Translations under genes and position numbers: made by a program
Source: Candidatus Bathyarchaeota archaeon
GTDB taxonomy: Archaea; Thermoproteota; Bathyarchaeia; 40CM-2-53-6; CAVXDP01
NCBI GenBank assembly: GCA_963760485.1
Contig: CAVXDP010000015.1
Coordinates: forward strand, 137,389-201,388
DNA: 64,000 bases
Direction: 5' to 3'
Notes under the pieces: generated by a model
Told to the model about the DNA's origin: nothing
The model's database searches: none
The model's input: only the letters and a program-made list of their open reading frames with translations
Part shown: piece by piece, positions 500 through 58,809 of the stretch
Layout of the letters: the number at the start of each line of letters is the position of its first letter
How positions within the stretch are numbered: the stretch's first letter is position 1

Positions 500-1004
500 T
501 TGTTGAACTCCCAAAAGGATTTGAAGAACGATTGGCGAGATGTGCAAGGCTGGTATGCCGTGTCAAGGTCACCGGAGAAACGATTTGAATTCCTAGAACA
601 TACATCAGATGCTTACGTAGCGGCGTATGGAAAATCGTTGGAAGAAGCTTTTGAAAACGCTGCCTCTTGCAATGTTCGAACTCATGACCGATACCTCCAA
701 CGTTGAACCTAGAACAGCTGACTCATTTCAGATGGAAGCCCACGATGAATATGCTCTACTCTACAAGTGGCTTGAGACACTGCTAGTGAAGTTTGAGACT
801 GACATGAGACTCTACTCACGTTTCAATGTTGTCGCAATTGACAAACGTAACGGAGCGTTTACCCTTGAAGCCAAAACCTATGGAGAGACATATTCGCCTG
901 AGAAGCATCGGCCGAGAGTTGAGGTCAAAGCGGTCACATATCATAGGATGGAGATAAAAACCGAACCAAGTTTGGTTACGGTCCGTTACATTCTAGATCT
1001 CTAG
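500..1004 (+). CDS. Archease (RtcB activator), read in two frames (500..706 and 627..1004), consistent with a single-base indel near 660-668
   Basis: Frame A carries the archease N-terminus KRFEFLEHTSDAYVAAYGKSLEEAFENAA. Frame B continues with LAMFELMTD...VKAVTYHRMEIK, the archease C-terminus. Removing one T from gcctcttgc restores ENAALAMFELMTD. The gene sits immediately upstream of rtcB. Confidence 0.7.
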
Positions 1005-1118
1005 AGTTCTTGCTCCGATCTTCCTAGATGGGTCCAATCATCAAGGCCTCTGATTGATAGAAGTTTAAATGTGCCATACAAATTAGTTACGAGACCAATC
1101 AGGATTTGAAGGGATGAA

Positions 1119-2603
1119 TTGTTGAGTGATGGGGGCGGTTCTGCCCGATCTTCTGAAAGAGTTCCATTAAGGAAGATATCAAATTACATTTGGGAAATAC
1201 CTCAATCCTACAAGTCAGGAATGCGTGTTCCTGGGCGAATCTATAGTGATGAACAGCTTCTTGAGAAGATGAAAAGTGACCAGACAATAGAGCAATGCTC
1301 CAATGTTGCTCACCTTCCAGGAATCTACAATTGGGCTGTAACGCTCCCAGACGGCCACGAAGGATACGGTTTTCCAATAGGAGGTGTCGCTGCCACAGAC
1401 TATGATGAGGGGGTTGTGAGTCCTGGAGGTGTAGGATACGACATAAACTGTGGAGTAAGGCTATTAAGAACAAACCTTGAGGAAAAAGATGTTCATCCCG
1501 TTATGTCTCAGCTTTTGGAAGCCTTCTTCAACAATGTCCCATCTGGATTGGGAAGTCGAGGCAAGATAAGAGTCAGCCCAATCGAACTGGACAAAGTGGT
1601 GTCAGATGGCGTTCAGTGGGCTGTGGACAAAGGGTATGGTTGGCCAGAAGATTCAGCGCACTGCGAAGAAAATGGATGCATGGAATCTGCTGACCCGTCT
1701 AGAGTCTCATCCTCAGCTAAGGCACGTGGATGTTCTCAACTAGGGAGCCTCGGAAGCGGAAATCACTTCCTAGAGATAGAGAAAGTTGACAAAATCTTCA
1801 ATCCAAGTGTAGCGAAAAGCTTCGGTATAGAAAAACCGGGGCAGGTATTGATTCTAATTCATACTGGAAGTCGAGGTTTCGGTCATCAGATATGTAGTGA
1901 CTATCTGGTTGTCATGGAGAGGTCCGTTCGCAAATATGATCTGAGACTCCCAGACCGTCAACTTGCTTGTGCACCTTTGAAAAGCAAGGAAGCGGAAGAC
2001 TATCTTCCAGCGATGGCTTCAGCCTGCAACTTTGCGTGGGTCAATAGACAGATGATTACCCACTGGACTCGAGAAGCCTTTGAGAAGGTTTTGGGAAGGT
2101 CAGCCGAGGCGATGAACATGCACGTCACATACGATGTTGCCCATAATATCGCAAAGATAGAAGAGCATGAAATCGATGGAAAGACAGTGAAAGTCTGCGT
2201 CCATCGAAAGGGAGCCACGCGAGCATTTCCCCCTGGCAACGCAAATATTCCATCTGACTATAGAGAGGTTGGCCAGCCAGTGCTACTTCCCGGAAGTATG
2301 GGGACCTCGTCTTGGGTTCTAGTCGGAACAAAAAAGGCGATGGAACTCAGTTTCGGATCCACAGCTCACGGTGCCGGGCGCGTTCTAAGTAGATCGGCGG
2401 CCAAGCGAAGATTCTGGGGTGCCGATGTAAAGAAGAACTTGGAAGACCAGGGGATAATGATTAGAGCAGCTGATATGGCGGTTGTAAGTGAGGAGGCACC
2501 ACAGGCCTACAAGGACGTGGACAGGGTGGTAAACGTGAGTCATGAACTCGGAATAGCGACAAAGGTCGTAAGGCTCGTTCCCCTTGGAGTAACGAAAGGT
2601 TAG
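1119..2603 (+). CDS. rtcB: RNA-splicing ligase RtcB (tRNA ligase)
   Basis: The 494-aa product has RtcB hallmarks: MRVPGRIY, GYGFPIGGVAATD, NCGVRLL, and His-rich metal sites (HTGSRGFGHQ, HNIAKIEEHE). It is adjacent to archease. Confidence 0.9.
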   Translation: MLSDGGGSARSSERVPLRKISNYIWEIPQSYKSGMRVPGRIYSDEQLLEKMKSDQTIEQCSNVAHLPGIYNWAVTLPDGHEGYGFPIGGVAATDYDEGVVSPGGVGYDINCGVRLLRTNLEEKDVHPVMSQLLEAFFNNVPSGLGSRGKIRVSPIELDKVVSDGVQWAVDKGYGWPEDSAHCEENGCMESADPSRVSSSAKARGCSQLGSLGSGNHFLEIEKVDKIFNPSVAKSFGIEKPGQVLILIHTGSRGFGHQICSDYLVVMERSVRKYDLRLPDRQLACAPLKSKEAEDYLPAMASACNFAWVNRQMITHWTREAFEKVLGRSAEAMNMHVTYDVAHNIAKIEEHEIDGKTVKVCVHRKGATRAFPPGNANIPSDYREVGQPVLLPGSMGTSSWVLVGTKKAMELSFGSTAHGAGRVLSRSAAKRRFWGADVKKNLEDQGIMIRAADMAVVSEEAPQAYKDVDRVVNVSHELGIATKVVRLVPLGVTKG

Positions 2604-2630
2604 TACTTACTGGTACTAAGCTAAGCGTCT

Positions 2631-3704
2631 TCACCATATCGTCCGCTTCAGCTTTGATATACCATCTATGGGAGTGGGATCGATTCCCCTAGCAATCGCC
2701 AAATAGACCGAGACATAGTCGCCCATGTAGATAGCGGTTAGTAGTCTTGCCAGTCTGTTTGACCCCGTTCCAACGATTTCTGAAATGTTTTTTATCCCAA
2801 GATTCTTGAGGTATTCTAGGGTTCCCTGAACGATTCGACTCTCCTTCTCATCTTGATTGTCATCTCTGATAAAGATGAATGAGCACCTCCAGAGATCAGA
2901 GGCAAGTTCAGGCCAACTCTCAACCTCGTTATGGCAAATCTCGGGAATAGTATCGAATTTTGAATGGACTTTGCTGTTCTCGTTTAGTTGGTTCTTGAAT
3001 CGTCGGGCAGTGCTTCTCATACGTTCAAGTGAATAGATTATGGGAAACCTGTTGACGAGTCTCAAAGCCATTCTCTTGGCGGGGTTGCCCTCGGTGTCTC
3101 CGGAAATATCTAGTGCCTGCCTGAGTGCTTTCAAATCATCTACAGCGGATTCTATATCCCCGAAATCCCGAATAATTCCGTACTCCAGCAAGATCGAGCT
3201 AACGGCACCAAAAATCCGTGGAAACGCAGCTCTCGGAGGGATGCCTGCTTCAACTCGCGTAATAGGGATGTCATGTTTCCTAGACAATTCTTCTAGTCTT
3301 CCTCCCGAAGTCACTGCGTGAACAAGGCAACGTTTACTTCTAGCTTCGTCGAATTGGCCGAGTGTTTCTCTAGTTTCTCCAGAGTAGCTTATGGCTATCA
3401 CAAGCGTATTCTGATCTGCGAATTTCGGTAGGCGAAGTCCTCTATTCACAACTATAGGAATCGGAACATTCTCCAACAACCAGTCCGAGATGACGTCACC
3501 TGCAATTGAGGATCCGCCCTGGCCAGCGACAATGACCTTTTCTGGCATTGCATGGTTCTTGGTTCCAGCTTCACTTGACTGGTAGCTCCTGATCGTGACT
3601 TGCAGATCTTCAGGGAGATGTTGAATATTCGATAGCATATGAGAGCGATCGATACTTCTCATCCGTGATAAGTCGTCGAGTATGCTTGACATGTCATTTT
3701 CCAC
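2631..3704 (-). CDS. SIS-domain sugar-phosphate isomerase, likely a bifunctional phosphoglucose/phosphomannose isomerase
   Basis: The 357-aa product has an SIS fold signature (VIVAGQGGSSIAGD ... AISYSGET); its length and architecture resemble archaeal PGI/PMI. Confidence 0.55.
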   Translation of the reverse strand: MENDMSSILDDLSRMRSIDRSHMLSNIQHLPEDLQVTIRSYQSSEAGTKNHAMPEKVIVAGQGGSSIAGDVISDWLLENVPIPIVVNRGLRLPKFADQNTLVIAISYSGETRETLGQFDEARSKRCLVHAVTSGGRLEELSRKHDIPITRVEAGIPPRAAFPRIFGAVSSILLEYGIIRDFGDIESAVDDLKALRQALDISGDTEGNPAKRMALRLVNRFPIIYSLERMRSTARRFKNQLNENSKVHSKFDTIPEICHNEVESWPELASDLWRCSFIFIRDDNQDEKESRIVQGTLEYLKNLGIKNISEIVGTGSNRLARLLTAIYMGDYVSVYLAIARGIDPTPIDGISKLKRTIW

Positions 3705-4946: not shown

Positions 4947-4949
4947 TAG

Positions 4950-6832: not shown

Positions 6833-7238
6833 ATGCCTAAAGAATTCTTATTTCAGAGGATACAACCTCGAACAACTCCAACAGACATCGATGGACGACT
6901 TCATAAGACTACTTCCGGCAAGACAGCGTCGATCATTACTAAGAGGACTTACTGATGATCAGAAGAAACTGCTGGAACACATCAGACAAGTGAGACGCGC
7001 ATCCGAAAAAGACAAGAAATCCCCGATAAGGACACAATGCCGAGATATGATAATCCTTCCCGAAATGGTGGGGTTGACTATACTAGTCCACAACGGCAAA
7101 GAGTTCGCTCAGGTTGACATAACGCCAGCGATGATCGGGCACTATCTCGGTGAATTCTCCAGCCCAATCAAGAAGGTATCCCATGGAACTCCAGGAATCG
7201 GAGCATCTAGGAGCTCAATGTACGTTCCATTGAAGTAG
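6833..7238 (+). CDS. rps19: 30S ribosomal protein S19, with its N-terminus in a different frame from the body (single-base indel near 6848-6856)
   Basis: ATG at 6833 gives MPKEFLF, which matches the S19 N-terminus MPKEF.YRGY. The body [32 protein letters not shown]...GHYLGEFS is offset by +1 after tttc. The ORF track starts only at the internal Met at 6891. Confidence 0.8.
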
Positions 7239-8088: not shown

Positions 8089-8276
8089 TGCTCCATTAGC
8101 ATACTATACTCGTGGAATTCTAGGATAGTCGTGTTCTGACCATATCAAAAGCCTTTTTATTACCCAGTATTCTTCTAGAACGCAACTTCGAAAGTGGATA
8201 AGGTAAAACGTCATGCCAGAATGGGGTTACTCGGTCAAGGGGCTGGATCCCGATAAGAGTGTGAAATGCGCAGGTC

Positions 8277-8681
8277 GTGAACTCAAAATATCACCCAAGG
8301 CCGACCGTGGAAATCTGTCACACAATAAGAGGGATGAAAATCGCTGAGGCAAAGACCCTGCTCGAAGAAGTGATCAAGAAGAAACGGGCTATAGCCTACA
8401 GGCGATACAAGAAAGAGGTTTCTCACAAGAGCCTGCCAGAAAGATGGTACGCAGGGAAATACCCCGTAAAGGCCGCAGATCGAATTTTGATGTTACTGAA
8501 CGAACTTGAGGCCAATGCCGAGTACAAAGGCCTTGATTTGGAGAACCTACGAATTATTCACGCAGCATCTCATAGGGGACGAAAGATTAGGGGTTACACT
8601 CCTCGAGGTTTCGGTAGGGCTTCTCCATCCTATGAGACACTAACTCACGTTGAACTTGTAGGATACGAGGCTTCTTCGTAA
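8277..8681 (+). CDS. rpl22: 50S ribosomal protein L22
   Basis: The 134-aa product is L22-like (KAIAYRRYKK ... ILMLLNELEANAEYKGLDLENLRI...ASHRGRKIRG). Confidence 0.85.
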   Translation: MNSKYHPRPTVEICHTIRGMKIAEAKTLLEEVIKKKRAIAYRRYKKEVSHKSLPERWYAGKYPVKAADRILMLLNELEANAEYKGLDLENLRIIHAASHRGRKIRGYTPRGFGRASPSYETLTHVELVGYEASS

Positions 8682-13511: not shown

Positions 13512-13900
13512 TTGCTCATAGAGATGGCATCTTCGGATTCGCTAAGGTGTTGGGTCGTGAGAAGAGAATAGTTCTACTTTGTTTTTCTCGGTTGGCAAGC
13601 AAACTGGCGAGTGCAAGATACTCTCTGTCAGTATCGCTTACCAGTCTTCTTCACTGGGTTGTTCGTCCTCTTCTTCCACGTCTTTTTCTTCGTCCATTCT
13701 GATTATCACCGAAACGAGCGACCATCCCTTCTAGCTAATAATACTTATGATTACTAAGCATGGGCTTTTTCCGGGTGAACAAACTTTCAACAAGAGTAGC
13801 ACGTTTTCTAGGACACCAATTCGATGAGAGAAAACAAATCGCTGAAAGAATGGCTGAGTTCTATGATAAGCGAAGTGCAGTGGTACACGGTGAGAATGTT

Positions 13901-13944
13901 GAAAAGCAGTTTAACCCCGACGTTATCGTTGGTTAAGATCCCAA
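13901..13944 (+). repeat. Island repeat copy B: GAAAAGCAGTTTAACCCCGACGTTATCG plus hairpin TTGG-TTAAGATC-CCAA
   Basis: Direct reading. The stem sequence differs from copy A but pairing is retained. Confidence 0.75.
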
Positions 13945-14045
13945 TCCTCTTGGGTAACGTTTTGCCAGGTTGGTTTCGGTTAGCATCAGACGATCTCTCA
14001 CTCAACAGAGCAAACTCAATTGTAGCCAGCATCGAATTGAGTTGG

Positions 14046-14066
14046 TTTATCCCCGACGATATATCC
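14046..14066 (+). repeat. Island repeat partial copy B': TTTATCCCCGACGATATATCC
   Basis: Direct reading. It shares the CCCCGACGATA core, lies about 100 bp after copy B, and is preceded by the 7-bp inverted repeat CTCAATT...AATTGAG. Confidence 0.5.
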
Positions 14067-14134
14067 GATTAAAGAGATCTAATCATTTGATATGATCCTG
14101 ACGCAGCTCTTAAGTTAGGGACAACGAAACCAAT

Positions 14135-15284: not shown

Positions 15285-15321
15285 GAAAAACAGTTTAACC
15301 CAGACGATAACGTGAGATAGG
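15285..15321 (+). repeat. Island repeat copy C: GAAAAACAGTTTAACCCAGACGATAACGTGAGATAGG, with a degenerate hairpin
   Basis: Direct reading. The box has C to A at one position and the downstream hairpin is lost. Confidence 0.65.
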
Positions 15322-15431
15322 TGCAGGAACCAGTTGGTATCAGTTGGCGGGTAATGCTTACGCGCCATTCGGAGCCGTCTTAACAGAAAGCACAGGTGAC
15401 TTGATATTCGGAATCAACTTCACCCAGTTGA

Positions 15432-18400
15432 ACCCCCAAGCAACGGATCAGTACTTTATACTATGGTCTAACGATTTATCTGCCACCGGAATTCAAGCCG
15501 CCAGTGGACTGGGCAACGGCTGACACTTCGAATATTATTACGACCATTACAAACGATTACAGCGTCATCTACGTTTGGAAGGCCGATGTGAAAGATCCCT
15601 TCGGACCGGGCTGGTGGGTTATCTACATACGTGCCCCCGGCGGTGGAGAATCCTCACACTCCATTATGATTTTCTCGCATGATAACGGATACAAGGAATG
15701 GTACTATGTTCGTGTGAACGGTATGACTGCGCCTAAGATTGCTGGTCGATACTTTTTCAAAATGTTCCTTGGCGAAAGCTATCCAATCATGAATGCGGTT
15801 AATCGTGACGGTTCCACCGTGAACCCGGACAGATTGCCGGTGCTGAACACGATGCCTGCGGAGAACTGGCCTGTAATGCTTGTGAAAGGTGAAGTTGATC
15901 CAGGCATTATTGAAGGGACAATTCGCTACGGTGCATGGAACCAAGCATTATACAATAAACCAATTCAACTTCCAGGCCGAGTTCGTGCGGTTGGAGTTGC
16001 AGATGACCCCTATACTGGTGCTAGTACAGGTCGTGCAGTTGAAGCTCGTGGATACTTTAACGCCTCAGCGAAAGGTCACTATGAGGTTGAAGGTGTAGCT
16101 CCAGGGGTCTATGACATTTATGCGAGTGCAGCTGGATACCCGGAAATGAAAGTTGCAAGCGGTGTAAAGATTATTGCAGGTAAAAGTTTCCACATGGATT
16201 TTCTATTGCAACCAGGTCCAATCATTACAGGTGTAATCTATAGCAAACACAGCTTCGGAGAAGTTAGCATGGTCGAGTACACGTCCAGTAACAGTAGAAA
16301 TCTATGACAGCAACGAATGGCCAGTAGCGAAACCAGGTTATGGCTGGGATTCTGCTGGAAATATCATTTGAACAGGGAACAGGCGAAGTATGGACTGATA
16401 TGGGTTACAAAGTTGTTAATGCACACCTGAAGAGTTTCTCACCAATCAATTTGACCCAAGCACCATTCACAAGTTATGTAGACTGGAAACGTAATCTATG
16501 ATCCAGCTAAAGGCTACGCTGATCTTCTGCACCCTGGCACTGTTTCGTTTTCTAGTCTAAGGGAATGTTCCTGGTGGACAACCTAAGCTAGTTGCATTTC
16601 CATGGGAGGGTCCCAAGAATCCATCGAGTTGCTTTACCATCAAGTTTCCTGGGGTCATGAATGAGTACTCTGATATTCCAGATGATCTAACGTCTCAGAA
16701 AGATAATTATGGCTTGTTCAATGGGGTTGGTCCAGCGCAGTACTGGTGGGTTGACAAACTAGGCCAATGGACGAATGGTGGCGGATCAAATAGTTTCCGT
16801 TATCAATTTGGAATCAAAGGATACTACGGTGCACCAATGGAATTCGACGGTCACATGCCACAAGTCTGTGCAAGCTGGGTTAACGGGTTGACCGCAGGCA
16901 CATACTACCTCCGTTCATGGATCAATGGCTACGTCCAAACTGATGTTAGCGGCACATACGTAGATTATCCATTCAGTGTCGCGGCACAGGAATGGGCTGG
17001 TGACATTAACACTCCAATGGACCTTGAAACGTCAAGCTGGATCAACAAGACTGTACACTTCCACGATTTGCCAGGCACCTTGCAGACAAGTCCGATTCGC
17101 GGACCAGATCCCTACAGGTACATGATCGCTGAAGCATACGACGCAGACAATGTGCTTGTTGCAATGAACTTTACACAGGTTCCAGTGAAAGACCGATACG
17201 GCAATCTAGTGAGTGACTGGAACATTACATTGAACGGATTCGGAATGGCAGGGCCGGTCTACATTATTCCGTCTGATTTATGGGTTGACTGAAGTGATTC
17301 TCGATGGTATTCCACCGGGCATGAAGTTCTTCCTGTACAGGTATAGGCATATCCGTGATTATGGCATGATGCCAGGCACTTACACGATCCGCGTCTACAT
17401 GAGAGGCTATGTGCAACAAGAATTTGAGATGGCTTCAATTAGTTTGAGCCAAAGTCCAGCGATAATCAGCAACCACATGTATCGTGGAGCAGGAATCAAC
17501 ATGACTATCTACTCAATTGACTGGGAGCATCCACGCGTCGACAGGCCATGGAACTTTCCATGGCGATGACATAAGAGTTCACGTGTTCAATGAGGCAGGA
17601 GACGACATGGGCCTACGTCAGATGGTGGGATGGGACGACAGGCCAACTATAGATACTTGGGTTGTGCCCAACACAGACTCAGCGGTAGCACAGTAGTTCC
17701 AAGCAAGGATTGGCCTGCACCAGCCCGGCTAGTAAGCTCAAGTTCAACGGTTCAACAGTTCTAGAAGTTTATGGACCGGACACGGGTGGTGGCTGGTTCC
17801 CATTCCGCTCTTAACTTTACACTTCCAATCTTAACGGCCCTGGCAGTACAGATGCGGGGACTGGTATATGGCTTGAATTCGGTTATTATAGAAGCGGGTT
17901 CTTGACAAGTCCAAACCTGTACAGAACTGCTGATCTGAAGACAAGGGTTGCCTTAGAAACTGGTACATACGACGCTTAAGGCGTGGACGCTTGGTTACGT
18001 CCAGAAGAAGGATATCACAGTCTACGCGCAGAAAGGATCACAGGCAGATACCAAGCTCAACCTAGTCATAGGCGTGAACATGACGGTTAACATCAAATTC
18101 AAGAAGGAAGGCATCTTCACACACGTACCATTTGACCAATCCTTTAGGATAAGAGTCTTCGACGATAACAATGGGCTAGTTGCCACATGGTACACCAGCT
18201 ATCTTCGATGATAGTACCTTCTACCATGGCGTGCTTCCACGATGCGGTCAACAGAGCCTACGGTGGATTCATGGAAAGGGGACCAGTGACATAATTCTGA
18301 GCGACGAATGAAGACTTTGGTCAGAGACAGCACCACCGACCTACAGGTTGTACTGGCTGGAAACTACTACTACTTCGAAATCAACAGCTATGGCTATGTT

Positions 18401-19062
18401 CCATTTGAAGAAAGAAACTATGCTCTATCCAGGGCTAATGGAATCGATGGGTGGCCGAATTATCAGGGTACTTGGCGCATCGAGGTTGATGCAGTCAACC
18501 TGGTACTATAGCGACAAGTGGTTCCCAGCTCCTCCAGGCCTGCTACTTGGTGAAAGCTACCACATAATCAACGGCGTCGAAGGACCGTACAACGGCATGT
18601 GGAAGTATAACCATCTTGGCCCATGGGAACAGAAGATGGTTGTTACAGTGCCAAATGCTCACTTGGGAGCTGAAGCAAGCGTCGTCTTCGAACTAGACCA
18701 ACGAGGCCTAGTCTCAGGACAAATCGCAGGATTCAGTTGGAGTGACGAACTCCGTCCAACAAGTTGGGCAACAATCACAGGCAGCTGGTGCAGGCGGGAC
18801 CTTCACAGTCTACTCGGCAGACGGATACTATGACATGTACCTTCCAGCAGGCAGCTACGAATTCAGCGTCATGGAAAGCCCAGGACACGCAGCAAAGAGC
18901 GCAAGCATAACCGTCAGTACAGGCCAACAAGTGACAGGATATAGCTTCTACTTAGAAAGAACCAACGTTCCAATTCCAGAATTCGGACCAGTCATAGCAC
19001 TAGTAGCAGCACTCGGAGCATCACTGTACGTGCTACGGAGAAACCGCAAAAAGGGCAACTAG
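15432..19062 (+). pseudogene. Giant surface protein (about 1200 aa if joined) with a PEF-CTERM-like C-terminal sorting tail. It is fragmented across at least six ORFs in three frames: 15504..16307, 16657..17292, 17285..17569, 18308..18511, 18348..18833 and 18742..19062
   Basis: Coding-like translation hops between frames, with stretches of 350 and 740 nt lacking any long ORF. The C-terminus is ...NVPIPEFGPVIALVAALGASLYVLRRNRKKGN (PEF, then TM helix, then basic tail). The disruption density is several-fold higher than in neighbouring genes. Genuine decay or mis-assembly of a hypervariable gene cannot be distinguished from sequence alone. Confidence 0.4.
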
Positions 19063-24103: not shown

Positions 24104-24412
24104 ATGAACAGAATATCGATACTGGTGGACAAGAAGATGGCTGCATATCTCGAGTTGCCGAAGAACATAGGCATCTCGGTGGCGTCGGGGAGAAATGACG
24201 CAGTACGCAGATTCAAAAGGCTGCGTTGTGATAATGACATTTCAATTATCATGGTTTCTAGAAGAGTCTTGGATTGGATAGAACAGCCCCTGTCGATGTG
24301 CACTGAGCAAGGCGGATGTCCGTTTGTTGTATCTCTTATCAACAAGGGTGGCCCAAGGACCCAGGCTAGACATGTTTCAAGGTTACTGGGAAAAATTGTT
24401 GAATCAACCTAG
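24104..24412 (+). CDS. V-type ATPase subunit F-like paralog
   Basis: ISILVDKKMAAYLEL...IGISVAS...DISIIMVSRRVLDWIEQ aligns with the bona fide AtpF at 63410 (VAIIADKYLATGFRLAGV...YDIIIMTEKLAMALKRE). It stands alone next to the P-type ATPase. Confidence 0.4.
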   Translation: MNRISILVDKKMAAYLELPKNIGISVASGRNDAVRRFKRLRCDNDISIIMVSRRVLDWIEQPLSMCTEQGGCPFVVSLINKGGPRTQARHVSRLLGKIVEST

Positions 24413-27194
24413 GGTCGCCGGCTAGTTCTCTTTTTGTCAACAGATATACTTGAAGCGGTGATTCGAGTCAGGTGCTTTCGAACCTCCTCGGCTACTAGTG
24501 GAAGAGGCGCGAGTAGGAGGAGAACCGCCCAGTTTTGGATTGTTAGTGGATACGTTCCAAAAATGGTCTGGAGAGGAGGAAGGTAGACGATTCCAGATAA
24601 TATTATGATTTGGGATGCAATCCCGAACCAGATCCACTTGTTACTGAAGGGCTTCACCTCTGAAATTGACGTTCTTCCAGTTCTACACGCAAACAGGTTC
24701 GCAGATTGCGCCACGACGATTCCAGCAAGGGTCATCGTGGTCCCCTGCCGATAAACTGGGTTATCTGAAGCTAGTCCCAACCCAAATCTCCATCCTCCAG
24801 CAATCCAAACAAGGAAACAACCAGTCAAGGACACTAGAGACACGAATATTCCAAGGAAAAGAGATCTTGCGATCGTTTTGGAATCGAAGAGTCTTTCTTT
24901 TGGACTTCGTGGAGGTCTATTCATGATGTGAGGTTCTGGGGGTTCGATGCTCAAGGCCAATGATGGAATGACCTCTATACCCAAATCGATTGCAAGAACT
25001 TGAGTGACAAGTAGTGGGAGTGGGATTCCGACTAGGACAAAAAGCAGGTAAGGTATCAGTTCGGCCCAGTTGTGCGCGAAGACATACGTTATGAACTTTC
25101 GTATGTTGTCATAGATTGCTCTGCCGCCTTCGATAGCCTTTGAGATCGATGCAAAACTATCGTCAAGCAAGATCATATCCGCAGATTCTCTTGCAACATC
25201 GGTGCCAGCCACACCCATCGCTACACCTATGTCCGCTTTCTTCAAAGAGGGCGCGTCGTTGGCTCCATCACCTGTGACCGCGACAATCTCTCCCATCGAC
25301 TTGAGTAGGGACACGATCCGCATCTTGTGTTCTGGCGTTGCTCTTGCAAAGATTATTTCTCCGGCATCAATCTGCCTGATCAAGTCGGGCTCAGTGAGTT
25401 TGTCCAGTTGGGCTCCAGTCAATACCGTACATTTTTCCGTCTCAACGATCCCTACTTGTCGGGCTATCGTGAGTGCGGTAGGTCCATAATCTCCCGTAAT
25501 CAAGATGACCCTTATGCCCGCCTTCTTCGCGTCCATGACGGCTTTTCTAACCTCGGGTCTGGGCGGGTCTAGGATTCCAAGAAGACCAATGAATACAAGA
25601 TCTGTTTCAACGGTATCGACATTCCATTCATGCAAGTCGGGTGGTAGTTTCCGATAGGCCACTGCCAGAACGCGGAGACCCTCCTCACCAAGTCTCCTTT
25701 TTTCAAGATTTATCTGATCAATATCTTCCTGAGCTAATGGGTGCACCTCAGACCCGTCAAGAACATGGGAACAGACATTGAGTGTCTCTTTTGGAGCTCC
25801 TTTGACGTAGGCGATGTTGCCGTCCTTTGTCTTGTGAATTGAAGACATCCTTTTTCTTATGGATTCGAATGGCAAGAGTTTGACTAATGGTGCATCAACT
25901 AGTTCGTTCTGCACGTTCAAATCCATCTTCAACGCCAATGTCAGAAGCGAGCCTTCAGTCGGGTCTCCAAGTACTCGCCACTGGCCACTTGTATCCGTAG
26001 GTGGAATCAGTTTCGAACTATTGCAGAGCGACGATGCCTTGAGGAGTATTTCTACACCTTTTCTCTCGCCGAGCTCTAGTTTCCGATCTCCAATGAGTAG
26101 TTCTCCTGATGGGCCGTAACCCTCGCCGGTCACGTCAATCGTTTCACCATCTATCCAGATCTTCTTGACTGTCATTTCTCCTTTGGTTATTGTTCCCGTC
26201 TTGTCGGTGCAGATCACTGTGGTGCTGCCGAGAGTCTCCACTGCTGAAAGCCTCTTGACTAGAACATTCTGCCGGGCGAGTCGAACAACTCCGAGGGCTA
26301 GCGCGGTTGACACAGTAACCTGCAAACCCTCTGGAACACATGCAACCATGACGCCTATCATGAAAAGGAATCCTGTTAGTGCATTCATGTGGAACCAGAG
26401 TGTATCCACCATGAAGAATAGTACCCCAACAGTGATCGCGATCACAAAGTCGATCTTGCGGCGTGCGATATCTGGTTCTGAAGTGGACTAACCGTATCTT
26501 CTATTGACTCGCTCATACCGGCAATTTTTCCAAATTGAGTTCTCATTCCGGTGTCATACACAACCGCTCTTCCAAAGCCCGACGCCACGGTGACTCCCAT
26601 GAACACAAGGTTCGTTACGTCGAGCCAACTTGCGGTTTCTGCCTGCATGGGATCAGCGTCTCTGGGTTGCGCCTCCGACTCTCCTGTTAGGGCGACGTTA
26701 TTCGTAGAGAGATCAAAAGCTTCCACAACACGTGCGTCTGCTGGAACGCGATCACCTTCATTTAGAATCAGTAAGTCTCCAGGGGCGATATCCTCAGCCT
26801 GGATTACCTTGGTTTCACCGTCCCTTACAACAGTCGCACGAAAAGGCAGGAATCTTTTAAGGGCCTTTACCGCCCTTTCAGCACGATATTCTTGAACGAA
26901 ACTCAATATTGCATTTAGAATAACCACCACAAGAACTGAAATGCCAAACTCAACCATGCCAGTTACGAAAGCCAAAATAGCGGCTATTATCAGGAGAGCG
27001 CTAAAGAGATCTTTGAACTGAGAAAGAAACTTGTTGAGAGCTGCTGCCCGCTTTGGTTCAGACAGCCGGTTCGGGCCGTACTCCTGCAGTCTCTTTTGAG
27101 CTTCGTCTTCTGTTAATCCTGTTGATCTTGTCTCTAACCTCTTGAGTACATCTGAAACCGGCCATGTATAGATTGGCAAAGAGTCCTTCACCAC
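24409..27194 (-). CDS. P-type cation-transporting ATPase (about 925 aa), split into two ORFs (26442..27194 N-terminal, 24409..26445 C-terminal), consistent with a single-base indel near 26445-26470
   Basis: The N-terminal ORF carries TGES (NVALTGESEAQP) and the TPLQ-like SPLQNQI segment. The C-terminal ORF carries PEGL, DKTGTIT, TGDGANDAPSL and GVAGTDVA. The ORFs overlap by 4 nt in different frames. Confidence 0.8.
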
Positions 27195-27377: not shown

Positions 27378-27800
27378 TTACCTGCCCTTGTATCGTTTTC
27401 TTTCCGAGTAACCCGAGGATGGAGATTGCGCCTCCGATAGAGAGGATGGCTGAAACTTGAACATGAACGATGCGTTGGCTGTTGAGAAGAGTGCCACTGC
27501 TATGCCTTCGAGGAAGCCAGTAAGTGCTCTGAGGGTGTTTGTACTCTCTCTCAAGGTATACGCTTGGCTGAGCCAATCTAGAGGAGCAGGCAAGGCGAGT
27601 AACAGGCATATCAGCAGTTGATATTGTAGGGAAAGATCCAGAAAGGCTGATGGCTCAATAATCCAGACTAAGGCGATGAATAGAACAAATCCTATGACTG
27701 TTCCACTGCATCGCGCACAGATATTGAGCCGTCTACTGCCGAGAGGTACTGTTATCCAATGGCCATGTCGTATTAGGATGTTCCAATCGAACTGTCCCAT
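27378..27800 (-). CDS. DUF2085-like membrane protein (CxRCxG motif followed by TM helices)
   Basis: The 140-aa product has ICARCSGTVIGFVLFIALV. Family assignment is from memory and tentative. Confidence 0.3.
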   Translation of the reverse strand: MGQFDWNILIRHGHWITVPLGSRRLNICARCSGTVIGFVLFIALVWIIEPSAFLDLSLQYQLLICLLLALPAPLDWLSQAYTLRESTNTLRALTGFLEGIAVALFSTANASFMFKFQPSSLSEAQSPSSGYSERKRYKGR

Positions 27801-32478: not shown

Positions 32479-33931
32479 TTAAAGCCCTCCAAGTCTCAGT
32501 CTTCTAAGCCTGATTTCGGGTCCCCCAGTCCACACAGGTGCTCCCTGCTGGGGGTCTCCTTTTCCACAAGTCGCTGCTTGAAAATCAACAGTCTTTGACA
32601 CAGCGTCCACGCTGCTATAAAGGCTGTGGGTGGTAACCTCAAGTACAGGGTTCCTGATTGGTCGAGTAACCTCTCCATTTTGGATCAGGTAGGCTTCGAG
32701 GCCGACATATCGCTGGTTGTACCTCCTATCGTCGATGTTCCATTCCATGAATGTCTTGATGTAGACTCCTGACTTTAGTTCGTCAAAGAGTTCTTCTCGA
32801 GTATAATTGCCTGGTTTCATGTACGTGTTTGCCATCCTGATAATGGGTTCTCGACTGTACGCAACGGCTCGTGCGGCACCGTTGCTTTTCACCCCCATCT
32901 CAGCTGGCCGTTTCACGGTTGTGTAGGAAACTTCTGATTACGCCTTTCTCAATCAGCACTCGTTCTCCAGTGCTCACCCCTTCATCATCGTAAAGGTAAT
33001 AGCCAAACGACCTTGGCAGGGTAGGGTCATCTACGATAGTAACGTGATCGCTACCGATTCTTGTACCGATCATTTCAGGCTTCAGATAGGATTCTCCTGC
33101 CTGCGCTGCTTCTCGTCCCAGTATTCTGTCTGCCTCTTGCGGATGGCCGCATGACTCGTGGCATATGATCCCGACAACCTCAGATCCCAGAATGAGGTCA
33201 GTTTCACCCTTAGGTGGGGCTGAGCCTTCTTCGAGAATCTTGCCCAAAGTTTTCGCTTCGTCAGAAACTAGTTTCGGGGGATCCCATTCCTGTACAGCTT
33301 CCCAGCCTCTGCTTTCTCCAACATGTGTCCATCTCTGAAGTGTTCCTTTGCCAGGCTTTGAAGCTGTGAGAAAATACCAGAGGCTGATTCGAGGGACTCT
33401 TCCATGGATCCTTGTACCTTCGCTATTTACGTAGAACTTTTCCTGTCTGTCATGTGAAAGTGTCATATACCGGGAGGGTAAATCGACACCTACTTTCTGT
33501 GGATCGAGCATATGCTCGACTTCAAGAAGAAGATCGAACTTCTCTTCTGGGCTTATGTCTTCAGGAGAAGATGCAGCTTTCACTTCCCAGCTCGTTTGAA
33601 CAGTCTTCTCAATTGAAAGTTTCACAGGGTTCTTGACGAGGCGTGAGGCAGAACGTGCCATATTGTATGCGAGTTTCACAAGATCTTCTACGTCGACTTT
33701 CGTTAGTTTATCTGTTGAAGCAAATCCTAGAGCTCCGTTAACTAGGATGCGAACTCCGATGCCAACAGCTTTGGATAATTGAAAAGTGTCCGGGATACCG
33801 TTCTTCAACGTGTAGGTGTTCTCTACGTCGCTCTGAATTCTTGCTTCAACATAATCAGCACCGAGATCTAATCCTCTTCGAATAACGTTCTCCGCCAAGT
33901 CTTCCATTCTTAGACGGTCACCATCGCTCAA
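32479..33931 (-). CDS. tldD: TldD-family metalloprotease, split into 32900..33931 (N-terminal) and 32479..32916 (C-terminal), consistent with an indel in a C5 homopolymer near 32905-32912
   Basis: The N-terminal ORF (343 aa) ends ...FLHNRETAS; the C-terminal ORF (145 aa) starts ...EMGVKSNGAARAVAYSREPIIRMANT. Together they span about 488 aa, which is TldD length. The overlap is 17 nt and falls in a ccccc run. Confidence 0.7.
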
Positions 33932-43719: not shown

Positions 43720-43899
43720 AACTATAGCTCCGAACCAGCTTCGTAGTGTGGGCTCTTAAACTATTCTACACAAATTTGAGGAATTTTGAATCGATTAATT
43801 TACACGAAAATGATAAGCACCCACCAAACTCGATCGGAGCATTAGAATCGGCAGTCACCATAGTTGGTCTCTCAGATCATTCGCACTCTCTGGGGTGTG

Positions 43900-44560
43900 A
43901 ATGCAATGTCGACTACGACATTCACCATAGACATCCAGGTCTCCCCAGTACACCCGACTGACTTGATGGATTTCATACGTCAGTTCTACATTCTTCCTAA
44001 TCGAGAACTACGGTACATCTAGAAAGGGACGATTGATAATCAGCAGACAAGTTTGATCTGTCTACTCCTAGGATCGTCATTTCGAACAAGTTGCCGAACG
44101 CGGCCGCCACGGGACCAAACCTAAGTCATGGAACCGTGCTGATAACTACCGGCCTACTAGTCCAGTTGGAGGATGACCAAATACTTGGCGTCGCAGGGCA
44201 TGAGATGGATCATTTGAAAGGTCGCGATCTACTGTGGCTATTCGGATTAATGTCATCAGAATTCTTGCTTCGGCCATAACGTACTTCTTCCATTATTCAT
44301 GTTCTCGCCATTTCTTTACTTGATAATGGCTATGGAATCGTTTATTTCATAGCGAAATTCTTTGAAGCCTGAGCTGACCTTTATTCCGCAGTCGTTATGG
44401 GCCAACCATACATCATCGCGGAGGCGCTGCGGAAGATAGGACTTAGTAGACTCCAGTTAGAGAAGTATCCGCAATCTAGGATCATGGCGCGGTTGGCTTT
44501 GGCGCGATCGAAATGACGTCGCGCAGGAATTGGCTGTGACCTTTCATTAAATTCTAAAAA
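43900..44560 (+). pseudogene. HtpX-like M48 zinc metalloprotease remnant spread across several frames
   Basis: Frame 1 (44091..44279) reads PNAAATGPNLSHGTVLITTGLLVQLEDDQILGVAGHEMDHLKGRDLL, which matches M48 PNAFATG...TTGLL..L.DDEL.GVLAHELGHIKNRD. Flanking segments continue in other frames with stops. At least two frame breaks lie within about 600 nt. Confidence 0.4.
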
Positions 44561-55848: not shown

Positions 55849-56445
55849 TCAATCTTGTTTAGCCCTCTGGCATTCGATCACGCGCTTGCCACGAGGTGAC
55901 GGAACCAAATGCAACTTTCCGTTTTCAAAGATTCGACTCAGTGATCTTCCTTGATAGAGTCTATCTAGGAAAATAGCCAAAGCCGCTACCTCAGAGTGGG
56001 GTTGATTTCCAATGGCGACGTTGAAGTCAGAAAAGTCCTCGGAATAGAATTCTGGGGGAACTTTTTGGCTTCCAACCAAGATTAGTATCTTCTTTGAAGA
56101 ACGCTTTATTTCTTCAAGAATGTTGCTTGTCTCAAGGTTTTCTCCGTACATTGTCAGATGCACGATGATTCCTCCAGTTTTCTTCCATTCCTGTACGGTC
56201 GCTTTCCATGATTTTCCAGATTCGACGAAGAATTGTCCTCCCCAATTGTCAACAACACGTGCTATAGTTGACTTGAGAGCAGTGTCTTCAACGTCAGAGA
56301 GAATGAACCCTTTAGCTCCCAATGCACGGGCTGTAAGAGCAACGTGCGCTGTAACTCTGAAATCTCTTGGTCTATGTCCCCATCGAAGCACGAAAACTTC
56401 AGGAGCTAGTTCTACCATTGAAACAGACGCTCGATCTAGCCTCAA
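55849..56445 (-). CDS. tRNA (cytidine56-2'-O)-methyltransferase aTrm56 (SPOUT)
   Basis: It has LRWGHRPRDFRVTAHVALTARALGAKG ... DNWGGQFF, matching the aTrm56 N-terminal pattern. Confidence 0.65.
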   Translation of the reverse strand: MRLDRASVSMVELAPEVFVLRWGHRPRDFRVTAHVALTARALGAKGFILSDVEDTALKSTIARVVDNWGGQFFVESGKSWKATVQEWKKTGGIIVHLTMYGENLETSNILEEIKRSSKKILILVGSQKVPPEFYSEDFSDFNVAIGNQPHSEVAALAIFLDRLYQGRSLSRIFENGKLHLVPSPRGKRVIECQRAKQD

Positions 56446-56456
56446 AATTGGGGTGG

Positions 56457-56976
56457 TCAGCTTTCTTTGGTTTGTTTTCGCTCCTTCTTGAACTGAATAA
56501 CGTCTCCTATGGTTAACTCTGGAGTCTCACTGAGAGTTTGTTTAGGTGCATCTGGTTCAGCTGCCGGAATCATGAGTTTCATTCTCAGAACGTGTTCAAG
56601 TGTACGAGAAAGTTGAAGGTTGGGAATCATCTTTTCCAATTCAATCTTCTGAATGATCGAAAGTCTTTCCTTGGCCAGCTTGGCCAAATCCTCTTGGCTT
56701 AACCCAAGCTTCTCTCTGGCTTTTCGAATTCGATTGGCGTAATCGTCGCGAAGTTCTAGTTCAGTATACCCCTTTGGAAGAGAGCCCGTTTGCATCTTAG
56801 GTCTGGCTTTCATCGGTCTAGAGATAGGTCGCTCAGGCGCCTTCGAAGGAGCCTACCGGTTGCCAGTAATCTTCACCATGAGTTGAACATTTGGGGCAGA
56901 CGACCAGGCGAGCTCCCTCAACGACGACGTGAGCCGGAGGGCCTCTTATCGGATTGCCACAGATTTCGCAGTTCAC
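56457..56976 (-). CDS. Archaeal MBF1 (multiprotein bridging factor 1; Zn ribbon plus XRE-type HTH), split by an apparent frameshift near 56815-56845
   Basis: Hand translation of 56976..56831 gives VNCEICGNPIRGPPAHVVVEGARLVVCPKCSTHGEDYWQPV, the MBF1 zinc ribbon. The HTH part (LGLSQEDLAKLAKERLSIIQKIE) is in ORF 56457..56813, in a different frame. Confidence 0.6.
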
Positions 56977-57054
56977 TTGGGTCGACCTTCCTTATCCGGT
57001 TGACTTCGTCAAATCTGGTATGACATAACTGAAGTGTTTAAGTTGTTATAAAAC

Positions 57055-57600
57055 ATGAATGGATCGGTCGCTCTAATGAAGAGAGCAGATTATAGGGAAC
57101 TCGCGAAGCTTAGAAGCGTTGGGAACTACCAATTTGGCAAAGGCGCCGGTAACGCTCTGTTTCCCAGCAGAATTCTTCTAACTCATTCCAGAAAGACGGG
57201 AAGGGTTCGGCTAGTATATCTTGATGGAAAATTGTTGGCGACTCTTCGACCTCGAGATGGTCAACTGGCTCTCACGTTAGAAGGTGCAAGGCTTCTTCTG
57301 AGTAAGTGCAAGTCTCTCCCTGCATACGTTACAGTAAGAAACGATGTTAGGGAGTTCATTAAGAAAGGTCGAAATGCATTTGCAAAGCACGTGATTCATG
57401 TCGACAAGAAACTGCGCCCGGAAGACGAAGCACTGGTTCTGGATGAGGATAGGAATCTACTTGCTGTTGGAAGGGCAGCATTGAGTGGAGAAGAGATTAT
57501 GGCTTTCAAATTCGGAGTTGGGGTTCGTATCAGGAGGGGAATCGAAGAGAACAGAAAGAGCGAGGCCGAGTCTACGAAAGGTCATTTGCCCGCAGATTGA
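57055..57600 (+). CDS. PUA-domain-like RNA-binding protein (tentative)
   Basis: The 181-aa product has a C-terminal segment resembling a PUA fold (EALVLDEDRNLLAVGRAALSGEEI). Weak. Confidence 0.3.
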   Translation: MNGSVALMKRADYRELAKLRSVGNYQFGKGAGNALFPSRILLTHSRKTGRVRLVYLDGKLLATLRPRDGQLALTLEGARLLLSKCKSLPAYVTVRNDVREFIKKGRNAFAKHVIHVDKKLRPEDEALVLDEDRNLLAVGRAALSGEEIMAFKFGVGVRIRRGIEENRKSEAESTKGHLPAD

Positions 57601-57609
57601 GGTGATGTC

Positions 57610-58389
57610 GTGAGAGTAGGTTTCGTTCAAATGAATTCCAAAATGTTGCAAGTGGAAGACAATGTCGACAGGGCTCTCCGAACCCTCCAAAGAATGAAGG
57701 CAGACCTAGTTGTTCTTCCAGAATTGTTCAACACAGGGTACAATTTCGCAAACAGAAGAGAAGTTGACAAAGTGTCGGAGAATATTCCTGATGGATTCAC
57801 AACGGAAAAACTGCTAGAAACATCACGTGAATTGGGGATGATCATCGTTGCGGGCCTGGCGGAGAAATCAAATGGAAACTACTACAATTCCGCGGTGGTA
57901 GTAGGTGAGAAATATCTTGGAAAGTATAGGAAGATTCACTTATTCTCCAGAGAGAAGAAACTCTTCACCAAAGGGAGAGAATTCAAAGTCTTTGGAAACA
58001 TTGGAATCATGATATGTTTTGACTGGGTCTTTCCAGAGAGTGCTAGAATTCTAATGTTGAAAGGCGCGGAGGTAATAGCGCACCCCGCGGCTCTAGTACT
58101 ACCATATTGTCCTGATTCTATGAAGACTCGAAGCCTTGAAAACAGAGTTTTTACCATTACAGCCGACAGAATCGGCGTGGAAAGAGGTTTGAGATTCATA
58201 GGCAGTTCGCAGATAGTCGATCCTACGGGAAGGATAATCTTCAGGGCGACCGAGACGGAAGAACAGTCCGTAGTAAGAACCATACAACTCAAAGACGCGA
58301 GAAAGAAGAAGTTCTCACGGTTCAACAGTATCCTTGAAGACCGCGTAACCGAGGCTTATCACGATCTCGCTAAACGATCCTTGCGCTAA
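57610..58389 (+). CDS. Carbon-nitrogen hydrolase (nitrilase superfamily)
   Basis: It has the E-K-C triad context (LVVLPELF...; CFDWVFPE). Confidence 0.8.
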   Translation: MRVGFVQMNSKMLQVEDNVDRALRTLQRMKADLVVLPELFNTGYNFANRREVDKVSENIPDGFTTEKLLETSRELGMIIVAGLAEKSNGNYYNSAVVVGEKYLGKYRKIHLFSREKKLFTKGREFKVFGNIGIMICFDWVFPESARILMLKGAEVIAHPAALVLPYCPDSMKTRSLENRVFTITADRIGVERGLRFIGSSQIVDPTGRIIFRATETEEQSVVRTIQLKDARKKKFSRFNSILEDRVTEAYHDLAKRSLR

Positions 58390-58421
58390 GCTTTTAGTAG
58401 CAGCACCCGGATCAGCTCAGA

Positions 58422-58809
58422 ATGGTTGGTGTTGGAATGTCTTACAAAGCTCTGAGGTCTGTCCGAGGCATGCCGTCAGGGAGACAGGCTGCTCGGATGA
58501 TGCAACGTATGGGAATGAACTTCGACGAGGTTAGTGGTGTAACGCGCGTTACAATAGAAACCAACGAAAAGAAGATTCTGATTGATGAACCCAGCGTTGT
58601 AACGGTCACCGCGCAAGGCCAGACAATGTATCAAGTCACAGGAGGAACCATGAGAGAAGAAGTTCTGAAGGCGGCCATTCCAGAAGTCGACATCAAGCTT
58701 GTTATCGGAACAGACTGGGAAGACCGCTGAAGAAGCTAGAAAAGCTCTTGAGGACACGGGCGGTGACCTGGCTAAAGCGATCTTGTTACTAAAGTCTGGA
58801 ACAACCTGA
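58422..58809 (+). CDS. Nascent polypeptide-associated complex protein (NAC alpha) with its UBA-like C-terminus in a different frame (indel near 58700-58725)
   Basis: The NAC domain ...MMQRMGMNFDEVSGVTRVTIETNEKKILIDEPSVV... ends at a stop at 58730. The +1 frame continues AEEARKALEDTGGDLAKAILLLKSGTT (UBA-like) to a stop at 58807. Confidence 0.65.

Follow-up and report, generated by a model that had tools for sequence, protein, structure and literature searches.

Single-base frameshifts private to one Bathyarchaeia contig are probably errors of its consensus sequence

When conserved genes of an archaeon are repeatedly divided between two reading frames by single bases, is this a trait of the organism, a case of recoding, or a fault of the assembled sequence? 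The question is raised by the window analysed here, a stretch of 64,000 nucleotides within a contig of 251,550 bp that belongs to a metagenome-assembled genome (MAG) of the Bathyarchaeia, in which essential genes (rps19 and rpl22) are among those hit. A finished prokaryotic genome has far fewer frameshifts than seen here. The initial annotation had listed seven conserved genes as broken, had read the breaks as sequencing or assembly indels and had named programmed frameshifting as an alternative. As far as can be judged from the comparison of deposited sequences, the single-base frameshifts are very probably consensus errors of the contig and not features of the organism's DNA, because near-identical DNA has been assembled independently from other samples without them.

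Indels private to the window

As reference we used metagenome contigs that were assembled independently of the window and are 98.7-99.8% identical to it, spanning 27.4 kb of its length. Within this compared sequence seven 1-nt indels are private to the window, five insertions and two deletions, of which five lie in confident genes; in the alignments to the near-identical contigs they are essentially the sole 1-nt gaps in each. All relatives covering any of the seven sites lack the indel. Those in rps19, tldD, the P-type ATPase, aMBF1 and the DUF2085 gene are absent from contigs of at least nine other samples or assemblies, and the same five genes, a small hypothetical ORF and one site of a giant surface-protein gene (18780) are intact in one to four other assemblies each. 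Overall, the natural population, as represented by many independent short contigs, has intact genes at every comparable site. The core of the initial reading, namely that the indels stem from sequencing or assembly and have no biological cause, is upheld by this absence from near-identical contigs and by the existence of an exactly repaired aMBF1 (see below). Its list of seven genes was correct in that all seven are disrupted but incomplete, as rpl22, the DUF2085 gene, the hypothetical ORF, a site at 3764 and the giant gene have to be added, and the estimated rate of one per 5-8 kb was too low and too even: the measured density was one per ~3.9 kb over the 27.4 kb compared and one per ~230 bp within the giant gene. 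The public record of the 251,550-bp source contig carries these frameshifts, with shortened products (P0370, P0377, P0379, P0383, P0385 and P0390) already on record.

The relatives were reached by several searches. When five repaired proteins were joined into one query, TldD relatives alone came back, yielding P0121 and, through it, contig L088, and the ATPase query against contigs of GTDB representatives gave matches of at most 54% identity. For L2 and four more proteins of the window, exact look-ups gave no match because the strains differ by one amino acid or the start call differs. Likewise, the repaired archease, rpl22 and NAC proteins had no exact match on record, an absence that carries no information.

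In rps19 (6833..7238, + strand), reported as divided near 6850, the extra base sits exactly at 6850 (window TTCTTATTTC, relatives TTCTTTTTC), with MPKEF encoded in one frame and RGYNLEQL... in the next. It is the lone gap in a 3,242-bp alignment with JGI contig L001 (98.2% identical); the alignment with ENA contig L169 has three gaps including this one, and both contigs lack the base. Five other assemblies encode an unbroken 134-aa S19 (P0371, P0372, P0374, P0375 and P0376), and a shortened 115-aa product (P0370) is catalogued for the source contig. At this site the window holds both natural alleles of a Phe/Tyr SNP next to each other (TTCT[T][A]TTTC), a polymorphism that is found as Tyr in P0371 and P0374 and as Phe in P0372, P0375 and P0376. 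With five synonymous and three nonsynonymous changes vs L001, rps19 resembles its intact neighbour genes.

The tldD gene (32479..33931, - strand) had been described as split near 32908 inside a CCCCC run. The split was confirmed, whereas the location in the run was not: an extra A (coding strand) lies between C and G at 32905 (ACGGCC[A]GCTGAG), and the CCCCC run (32892-32896) falls past the stop codon (32900-32902) of the upstream frame. Positions 2-95 and 96-220 of the Pfam domain PmbA_TldD_3rd are in separate ORFs. The extra base is the lone gap in 6,226 bp vs L088 (99.7% identical), a comparison with five synonymous and no nonsynonymous differences in tldD, and it is also absent from contigs L170 and L171. 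The P-type cation ATPase (24409..27194, - strand) is one base short between 26459 and 26458 (window GCCG-CAAG, relatives GCCGCCAAG), matching the division reported near 26450; ORF 26445-27194 matches positions 4-120 of Pfam E1-E2_ATPase, and ORF 24412-26445 matches positions 126-181. ENA contig L170 and JGI contig L171 (each 99.4% identical) carry the missing C, and their frame is open. Furthermore, the adjacent DUF2085 gene (27378..27800, - strand) lacks a G between 27453 and 27452 (window AAGTTT-CAGCC, relatives AAGTTTGCAGCC), which alters its C-terminal tail; the G is present in L170, L171 and L173, where the gene call of L173 has 142 aa.

For aMBF1 (zinc ribbon plus HTH; 56457..56976, - strand), the reported split is real but its position had to be moved from about 56830 to 56853, where an extra base at 56852/56853 (coding strand GGTA[G]GCTCC) leaves the zinc-ribbon part and the HTH part in different frames. 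JGI contig L089 (99.1% identical) is without this base and encodes 172 aa, three more 172-aa versions are on record (P0394, P0396 and P0397), and the window's gene minus the extra base is an exact match to P0393 from a 6.9-kb ENA contig. The two remaining private insertions are an extra A at 3764 in the intergenic spacer between PGI and rpl3 (GGCGA[A]CAAT; not in ENA contig L169, 99.2% identical) and an extra base at 14063 (GATAT[A]TCCG) in the small hypothetical ORF (13824..14072, + strand), which is doubtful as a real gene and has 82 aa in the window vs 85 aa in two other assemblies (P0391 and P0392). The latter base is the lone gap over 3,067 bp vs ENA contig L180 (98.7%).

Archease, rpl22 and NAC were compared with relatives of ~73-76% DNA identity. 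Archease (560..1004, + strand) has one extra base at 664/665 (GCTGC[C/T]TCTTGCA), in agreement with the division reported near 663: in tblastn with the intact 147-aa protein of relative L002, frame 2 (560-664) covers residues 1-35 and frame 3 (666-1001) covers residues 36-147, and the DNA alignment with relatives, which are not near-identical, has its single gap at the split point. A similar pattern was found for rpl22 (8213..8681, + strand; one extra base at ~8303/8304, AAGGCCG[A]CCGTGG), where frame 2 (8243-8302) accounts for residues 1-20 of the L002 protein and frame 3 (8286-8672) for residues 15-143; the gene is intact at 144 aa in six relatives, again not near-identical ones, and DNA alignment placed the gap. 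In NAC (58422..58809, + strand), reported as divided near 58715, one extra base lies within 58704-58707 (GTT ATCG GAA), as indicated by both the domain split and the alignment with relatives. The Pfam NAC domain is in the upstream ORF, the 37-aa tail in the next frame gives weak sub-threshold UBA matches, and relatives L090, L091, L092 and L094 have a single continuous ORF, with one gap at the site in the DNA alignment. Contig L089 stops 58 nt before the NAC site, which hence falls outside the near-identical comparison. As side observations, six-frame Pfam scans of 8673-10310 gave no match, and Rfam and ARAGORN gave no resolution for a tRNA-like block at 286-466.

Indel spectrum, substitutions and selection

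None of the seven verified private indels lies in a homopolymer of at least three bases, contrary to the homopolymer suggestion made initially for tldD. Homopolymer-length error of the nanopore, 454 or Ion Torrent type was set aside as a candidate, as no verified indel alters a run of that length, and the 52 runs of at least five bases in the compared 27.4 kb agree between assemblies, bar one natural A4/A5 polymorphism. Three indels are naturally polymorphic (28863, 55796-55801 and 6781), all outside coding sequence, while five to six of the seven private ones lie in called ORFs (hand-worked Fisher test, P~0.03). With a coding fraction of ~87% (estimated by eye), the private indels fall in coding sequence about as often as chance predicts. 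Known spontaneous indels favour homopolymers and those of prokaryotes are deletion-biased, which is opposite to the pattern here. The insertion bias, the lack of homopolymers and the blindness to coding sequence thus point to an artefact, and not to mutation or recoding. SNPs within 30 nt of private indels numbered 8 vs 4.2 expected, a weak and non-significant enrichment (P=0.09), and direct support for an insertion placed at a strain SNP comes from rps19 only. Several 6-bp palindromes beside the sites (GAATTC, CAGCTG, TTCGAA, AAGCTT and TTGCAA) were considered as a motif and rejected, because the exact indel positions have unrelated contexts.

Investigating the substitutions, we observed that those private to the window are not in excess of those of other assemblies (2/2,971, 0/1,071 and 3/2,860 columns), and the synonymous to nonsynonymous ratio vs L088 is 14:4 overall. 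These counts are what one would expect of normal divergence between strains with purifying selection in place.

A giant surface-protein gene and a true pseudogene

The densest cluster of shifts is found in a giant surface-protein gene (15320..19062, + strand; CarboxypepD_reg domains and a PEF C-terminal anchor), whose chained translation requires ~16 frame changes. Shifts of +1 lie near 15455, 16266, 16360, 16481, 16566, 17285, 17561, 17613, 17680, 17974, 18200, 18237, 18292, 18503 and 18780, and one -1 shift near 17717 (insertion:deletion ~15:1), with a possible in-frame stop at 17812 and ~95 unrecognisable N-terminal residues. Colinear ORF matches along the gene cycle through the frames (f1>f2>f0>f1 etc.), a frameshift-aware alignment vs five homologues reproduces the same shifts, and the full chained translation (100%) aligns with intact homologues of 1,319-1,373 aa, with 60-65% identity. 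Pieces of the gene are on record for the source contig (P0379, P0383 and P0385), and this dense cluster is resolved only in part.

Might this gene be a 5'-truncated, non-functional copy in true decay, with assembly errors confined to the scattered single shifts elsewhere? We regard this as unlikely. Its shift density is ~17x that found elsewhere (16 in 3.7 kb vs 7 in 27.4 kb), homology to the intact homologues begins directly after a 42-nt repeat, no signal peptide is recognisable, and the codon that is hit by an insertion in the window (GEV-x-W) is one nucleotide short in a 4.3-kb ENA contig (P0384), all of which would fit decay. However, 16 neutral indels should come with many substitutions, stops and larger deletions, whereas nearly all shifts here are +1 insertions of a single base, accompanied by one nonsense codon at most, and identity to homologues still reaches 94% in conserved segments. 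Moreover, the single testable site, 18780, is open in two near-identical JGI fragments (P0387 and P0388; 92-99% identical). In homologues carried by other long contigs from NCBI/ENA (159 and 168 kb), splits occur at different positions, which also argues against decay, and the homologues on many other contigs (7.6-59 kb) are intact. The shifts occupy the less conserved segments (mean 0.66 vs 0.79, P=0.0005).

What decay looks like in this window can be seen in an htpX-like M48 peptidase remnant (43746..44560, + strand), to which Pfam Peptidase_M48 matches as a fragment only. The fragment contains HEMDH, and the translation shows stops inside the homologous frame together with several indels. 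An independent JGI contig, L179, has the same stops (RELRYI* and FLLR.*RTSS), plus a 28-bp deletion and further 1-nt differences; it is ~95% identical to the window in the htpX-like gene (by eye), near-identical in the adjacent purC and 97.0% identical over the whole 2.1-kb alignment. Since an independent assembly has the same stop codons, the htpX-like gene is, on this evidence, a genuine, decaying pseudogene; the multiple breaks seen initially do exist, but their reading as assembly indels does not hold. The advice to treat all pseudogene calls in the window as provisional therefore remains sound for single-frameshift calls and not for this gene, which differs from the others in its nonsense codons and its 28-bp indel, common to another assembly.

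Error, mutation or recoding

That the frameshifts are real and very recent mutations, from genome decay or a mutator clone, with many genes true pseudogenes or made as truncated or split products, would be remarkable, yet the evidence is strongly opposed and we consider it improbable. The indels do stand in deposited public sequence with shortened products on record, but each near-identical assembly that covers a site is without the indel. Many frameshifted genes in a short stretch are likewise a trait of decaying genomes, e.g. those of Mycobacterium leprae and of recent endosymbionts, and here they come with one true pseudogene nearby (the htpX-like gene) and a giant gene that seems to be without its 5' end beside a repeat. 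Unlike in those genomes, essential ribosomal proteins are hit, purifying selection persists (with tldD at 5 synonymous to 0 nonsynonymous, the disrupted genes are not under relaxed selection) and substitutions are not elevated; the indels are private to one assembly and insertion-biased, not deletion-biased, and, like their avoidance of homopolymers, this runs contrary to spontaneous mutation in prokaryotes. An S19 begun at the internal Met would presumably retain all parts homologous to bacterial S19, but a cell could hardly live with a split tldD and ATPase and broken rps19 and rpl22, given a frameshift about every 4 kb.

Among the JGI gene calls, two that lie on contigs of 1.4 kb, P0373 (115-aa S19) and P0378 (118-aa C-terminal part of aMBF1), start at the internal Met of the window's shortened ORFs. 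They could carry the same disruption in other contigs, which would favour real mutation; alternatively, the contig edge may lie near that Met. JGI contig L001 has a gene at its edge whose call begins with the first in-frame GTG, and P0373 is identical to the C-terminal part of P0374, which is intact. The shared internal Met hints that some rps19 and aMBF1 frameshift alleles may be real and circulate in natural Bathyarchaeia populations, which we find very improbable; if true, the cell would tolerate an N-terminally truncated uS19 and an aMBF1 without zinc ribbon, or a form of recoding would rescue them.

Programmed recoding, by +1 ribosomal frameshifting or transcriptional slippage with full-length proteins still made, has next to no chance of being correct. 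Most shifts go in the same direction, and a full-length product would need a +1 change as in bacterial prfB, yeast Ty1, Euplotes and the poly(A) slippage of endosymbionts. In contrast to those systems, there is no conserved site, slippery sequence or codon, adjacent stop or rare codon, homopolymer or common motif, and the context differs at every site. The shifts are missing even from 99% identical relatives, whose frames are plainly open, and this alternative of the initial annotation is contradicted by the uninterrupted frames of orthologues that are 98-99.8% identical. Furthermore, the zero-frame stop is often far downstream (~30 codons in rps19), and two sites would need a -1 shift.

The frameshifts are thus most likely no real biological feature, and errors of the consensus match them in several respects. 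Small-indel frameshifts are described as a recognised problem of long-read assemblies (10.1101/2021.08.23.457338, PMC9262707, PMC8812927), and as in long-read or hybrid assemblies, isolated 1-nt indels break well-conserved ORFs into adjacent frames with substitutions unaffected. At 251 kb the source contig far exceeds the 1-20 kb of the short-read contigs from its population, which are intact, and errors persist or concentrate in strain-variable regions. As a counterpoint, the non-homopolymer context is atypical of the best-known long-read consensus errors: typical nanopore and PacBio residual errors are described as homopolymer-length errors (PMC9262707, PMC8812927), whereas the verified errors here avoid homopolymers and the runs are correct. 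The indels may have arisen in read consensus, in polishing or in the merging of a mixed-strain population, through a process that would be insertion-biased, homopolymer-independent and strongest where co-occurring strains differ most. The rps19 site with both alleles and the crowding of the giant-gene shifts in variable segments are offered in support of such strain-linked errors.

Gene-splitting indel errors left over in long-read or hybrid assemblies are the target of proovframe, of IDEEL-type length tests and of short-read polishers. Without re-polishing, one would obtain wrong pseudogene counts, completeness estimates and metabolic reconstructions for this organism, any claim that its genome decays or is recoded would be mistaken, and single-frameshift pseudogene calls on the contig are not trustworthy, with the htpX-like gene as the exception. 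Artefact and decay are separable here even without reads, as decay is common to assemblies and comes with stops and larger indels, whereas artefacts are single-base changes, private to one assembly, that spare coding sequence no more than other DNA. With a frameshift every 4 kb or so, as observed, about one in four of the contig's genes would be disrupted and mis-called (truncated or split), and shortened products such as the 115-aa S19 and the 118-aa aMBF1 are already catalogued as proteins in public databases.

Split genes in the deposited sequence

Archease and RtcB genes, the rpl3-rpl4-rpl23-rpl2-rps19-rpl22 operon, aMBF1 and NAC make up the recognisable gene content of the window, which is assigned to an archaeon of the Bathyarchaeia by the best named hits of its L2 protein. 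The initial annotation had proposed that several conserved genes here are each broken into two frames by sequencing or assembly indels. Three-frame translations and codon-level views bear out the breaks themselves, as each of the claimed genes runs on in the neighbouring frame. The splits of archease and rps19 are evident against intact orthologues in the syntenic relatives L002-L007, while Pfam domains are cut between two ORFs in the P-type ATPase (E1-E2_ATPase, profile positions 4-120 and 126-181) and in tldD (PmbA_TldD_3rd, profile positions 2-95 and 96-220), and the two domains of aMBF1, like those of NAC, sit in different frames. The list of split genes was nevertheless incomplete, since rpl22 is also split and the giant surface-protein gene adds about 16 frame changes, detected by a frame-aware scan and homologue mapping. 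Nor does the tldD shift lie inside a CCCCC run, as had been supposed, because the upstream frame has already reached its TGA (32900-32902) when the run (32892-32896) begins. In exact look-ups, products encoded in the window, truncated ones included, were recorded for one 251,550-bp contig at NCBI and ENA, and the frameshifts are therefore present in the deposited sequence.

The VOC/glyoxalase gene at 14724-15190 (-) is open from KTGTVSNARFVHTNIV... without an in-frame start codon, and an ATG is found one base out of frame (AAATGCTAGA), which suggests a further putative 1-nt deletion right after the start (ATGGCT shortened to ATGCT). This site lies just a few bases beyond 15143, where the near-identical ENA contig L180 stops.

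Comparison with near-identical contigs from other samples

Contigs with 98.7-99.8% identity to the window, originating from other samples and other assemblers, were obtained through exact-protein look-ups and a single metagenome scan; they cover 1500-7445 (L001 from JGI, L169 from ENA), 12077-15143 (L180), 25801-39108 (L170-L178 and L088, from ENA, JGI and Logan), 42256-44366 (L179, JGI) and 55677-58646 (L089, JGI), so that 27.4 kb in total could be compared. Gaps in these alignments are very few and are located at the frameshifts. An extra A in rps19 is the sole gap across 3,242 bp against L001 and is also missing from L169, and in tldD the sole gap across 6,226 bp against L088 is again an extra A, which L170 and L171 likewise lack. 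The P-type ATPase of the window lacks a C present in L170 and L171, aMBF1 has an additional G that L089 does not have, and the DUF2085 gene lacks a G in the window only; an additional base at 14063 in a small ORF and an additional A at 3764 in an intergenic spacer are also private to the window. Once its additional base is removed, aMBF1 matches residue for residue the protein on an ENA contig of 6.9 kb, 172-aa versions occur in three further assemblies, and an intact 134-aa S19 is encoded by five. The absence of these private 1-nt indels from independent, near-identical contigs upholds the earlier reading of the single-site shifts as assembly indels, and judged on sequence comparison they are very probably an artefact of one public assembly, which matters to users of this genome and is of small biological interest.

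Occasional indels occur in other public assemblies too: at about window position 30341, the Logan contig L172 carries a private 1-nt insertion (GAGCTGCCTG versus GAGCTGCTG), which cuts the gene call of a pyridine-nucleotide oxidoreductase to 395 aa, compared with 406 aa in the other assemblies.

Natural variation and a possible origin of the probable assembly errors

Spontaneous indels in prokaryotes are deletion-biased and concentrated in homopolymers. The verified sites comprise five insertions versus two deletions (in the giant gene, about 15 versus one), and none of the seven verified indels falls in a run of at least 3 bases, unlike the homopolymer context that the initial annotation gave for tldD; the 52 runs of at least 5 bases in the compared regions match between assemblies, with the exception of one natural polymorphism. 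The natural indel polymorphisms seen between the other assemblies, namely a T at 28863, 6 bp at 55796-55801 and A4/A5 at 6781, are all noncoding, whereas five or six of the seven window-private indels lie inside ORFs, approximately the proportion expected without any selection. Private substitutions in the window do not exceed those of other assemblies where several overlap, the differences to L088 are mostly synonymous (14:4, and 5:0 inside the split tldD), and the codon differences of rps19 to L001 are similar to those of its intact neighbours. Across the site contexts and the near-identical contigs, the shift sites share no motif and are not conserved, which rules out programmed frameshifting. 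Taken together, coding placement, substitution pattern, indel spectrum, absence from homopolymers and the lack of conservation or a motif set the private indels apart from natural variation.

Truncated rps19 and aMBF1 alleles could in principle circulate, as two gene calls from JGI, each on a contig of 1.4 kb, P0373 (a 115-aa S19) and P0378 (a 118-aa C-terminal part of aMBF1), start at the internal Met where the truncated ORFs of the window also start; the sequences diagnostic of the assembled frameshift alleles are TTCTTATTTC and GGTAGGCTCC. These starts may simply reflect contig edges just upstream; on L001, also from JGI, an edge gene was called from the first in-frame GTG and not from the edge. 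The C-terminus of the intact P0374 has exactly the sequence of P0373, and we consider real circulation of such alleles highly improbable.

Assembly error remains the preferred reading, and rps19 offers a hint to its origin. Natural strains have either TTT (Phe) or TAT (Tyr), and the window has TTCT-T-A-TTTC, the two natural alleles in tandem; the insertions in archease, tldD and aMBF1 are also compatible with side-by-side alleles of a third-position SNP. This suggests that a consensus, polishing or merging step might have mishandled mixed strains and thereby generated the insertions, although beyond rps19 such an origin is only weakly indicated (SNP density near private indels, P=0.09). A long-read or hybrid assembly would fit the contrast between the long source contig and the short, intact contigs from elsewhere, but no platform can be named because homopolymer errors are absent. 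Assemblies of this kind are recognised to suffer from small-indel frameshifts (10.1101/2021.08.23.457338, PMC9262707, PMC8812927).

The giant surface-protein gene, the htpX-like pseudogene and further features

The chained translation of the giant gene aligns along its entire length (100%) to intact homologues of 1,319-1,373 aa, which occur on many other contigs of 7.6-59 kb. About 15 shifts of its reading frame go by +1 and a single one by -1, and no more than one in-frame stop interrupts it; these 16 events within 3.7 kb amount to a density about 17-fold that found elsewhere. Such a spectrum, almost entirely +1 and free of nonsense codons, points to the same artefact, presumably acting harder in a strain-variable gene; the shifts lie preferentially in variable protein segments (P=0.0005), where their placement by alignment is less precise, and two fragments from JGI, which share 92-99% identity with the window, are open across site 18780. 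On other long contigs at NCBI/ENA (159 and 168 kb), homologues in related archaea are broken at sites that differ from those of the window (P0250 with P0386 on the 159,449-bp contig; P0253 and P0380 on the 168,401-bp contig), which suggests that these sister assemblies share the quality problem. Part of the defect may still be real, given that the N-terminal ~95 residues are unrecognisable and homology begins directly after a 42-nt repeat, yet we regard this as rather unlikely.

Five copies of this repeat (core CAGTTTAACCCCGACG) lie in the window, all of them between 11 and 19 kb (11218-11259, 11809-11824 (-), 13902-13943, 15286-15327 and 19192-19233), with a chance expectation of about 0. They flank gene blocks, including the giant gene, and match the 3' end of a short ORF at 13760-13936 (...FYDKRSAVVHGENVEKQFNPDVIVG*) with an Rx4H HEPN-like motif; the copies may be what is left of a small gene family, or they may mark recombination junctions.

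The htpX-like M48 remnant (43746..44560 (+)) had been counted among the assembly errors, an assignment that does not hold, as the stop codons within its homologous frame are identical in the independent contig L179, which has its own 28-bp deletion and raised divergence, while the adjoining purC is near-identical between the two. On this comparison the gene is a real, truly decaying pseudogene, and it serves as a local reference for the appearance of genuine decay.

Synteny is lost right after rpl22 (8673-10310), where the gene order of L002-L007 runs through rps3, rpl29, RNase P p29 and rps17 onward to rpl30, all absent from the entire window; the 1.6 kb following rpl22 contain no ORF of at least 60 aa and no Pfam match in six frames, and the break could reflect a rearrangement, an island specific to this strain or a misjoin. 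A block at 286-466 (-), highly conserved with L002, includes, at 286-357, what resembles the T-arm and acceptor 3' half of a tRNA; in both sequences it received no ARAGORN call and scored under the Rfam gathering threshold, and it may represent a tRNA that is split or interrupted by an intron. The sole tRNA of the window at the Rfam threshold, 47164-47277 (+), likewise without an ARAGORN call, presumably contains an intron because it is 114 nt long. Finally, between two conserved genes, the segment 62481-63322 is longer in the window by ~760 bp compared with the syntenic relative L090 and ~270 bp compared with L091, and the additional sequence, which has a low coding signal, may represent a small insertion or a strain-specific ORF.
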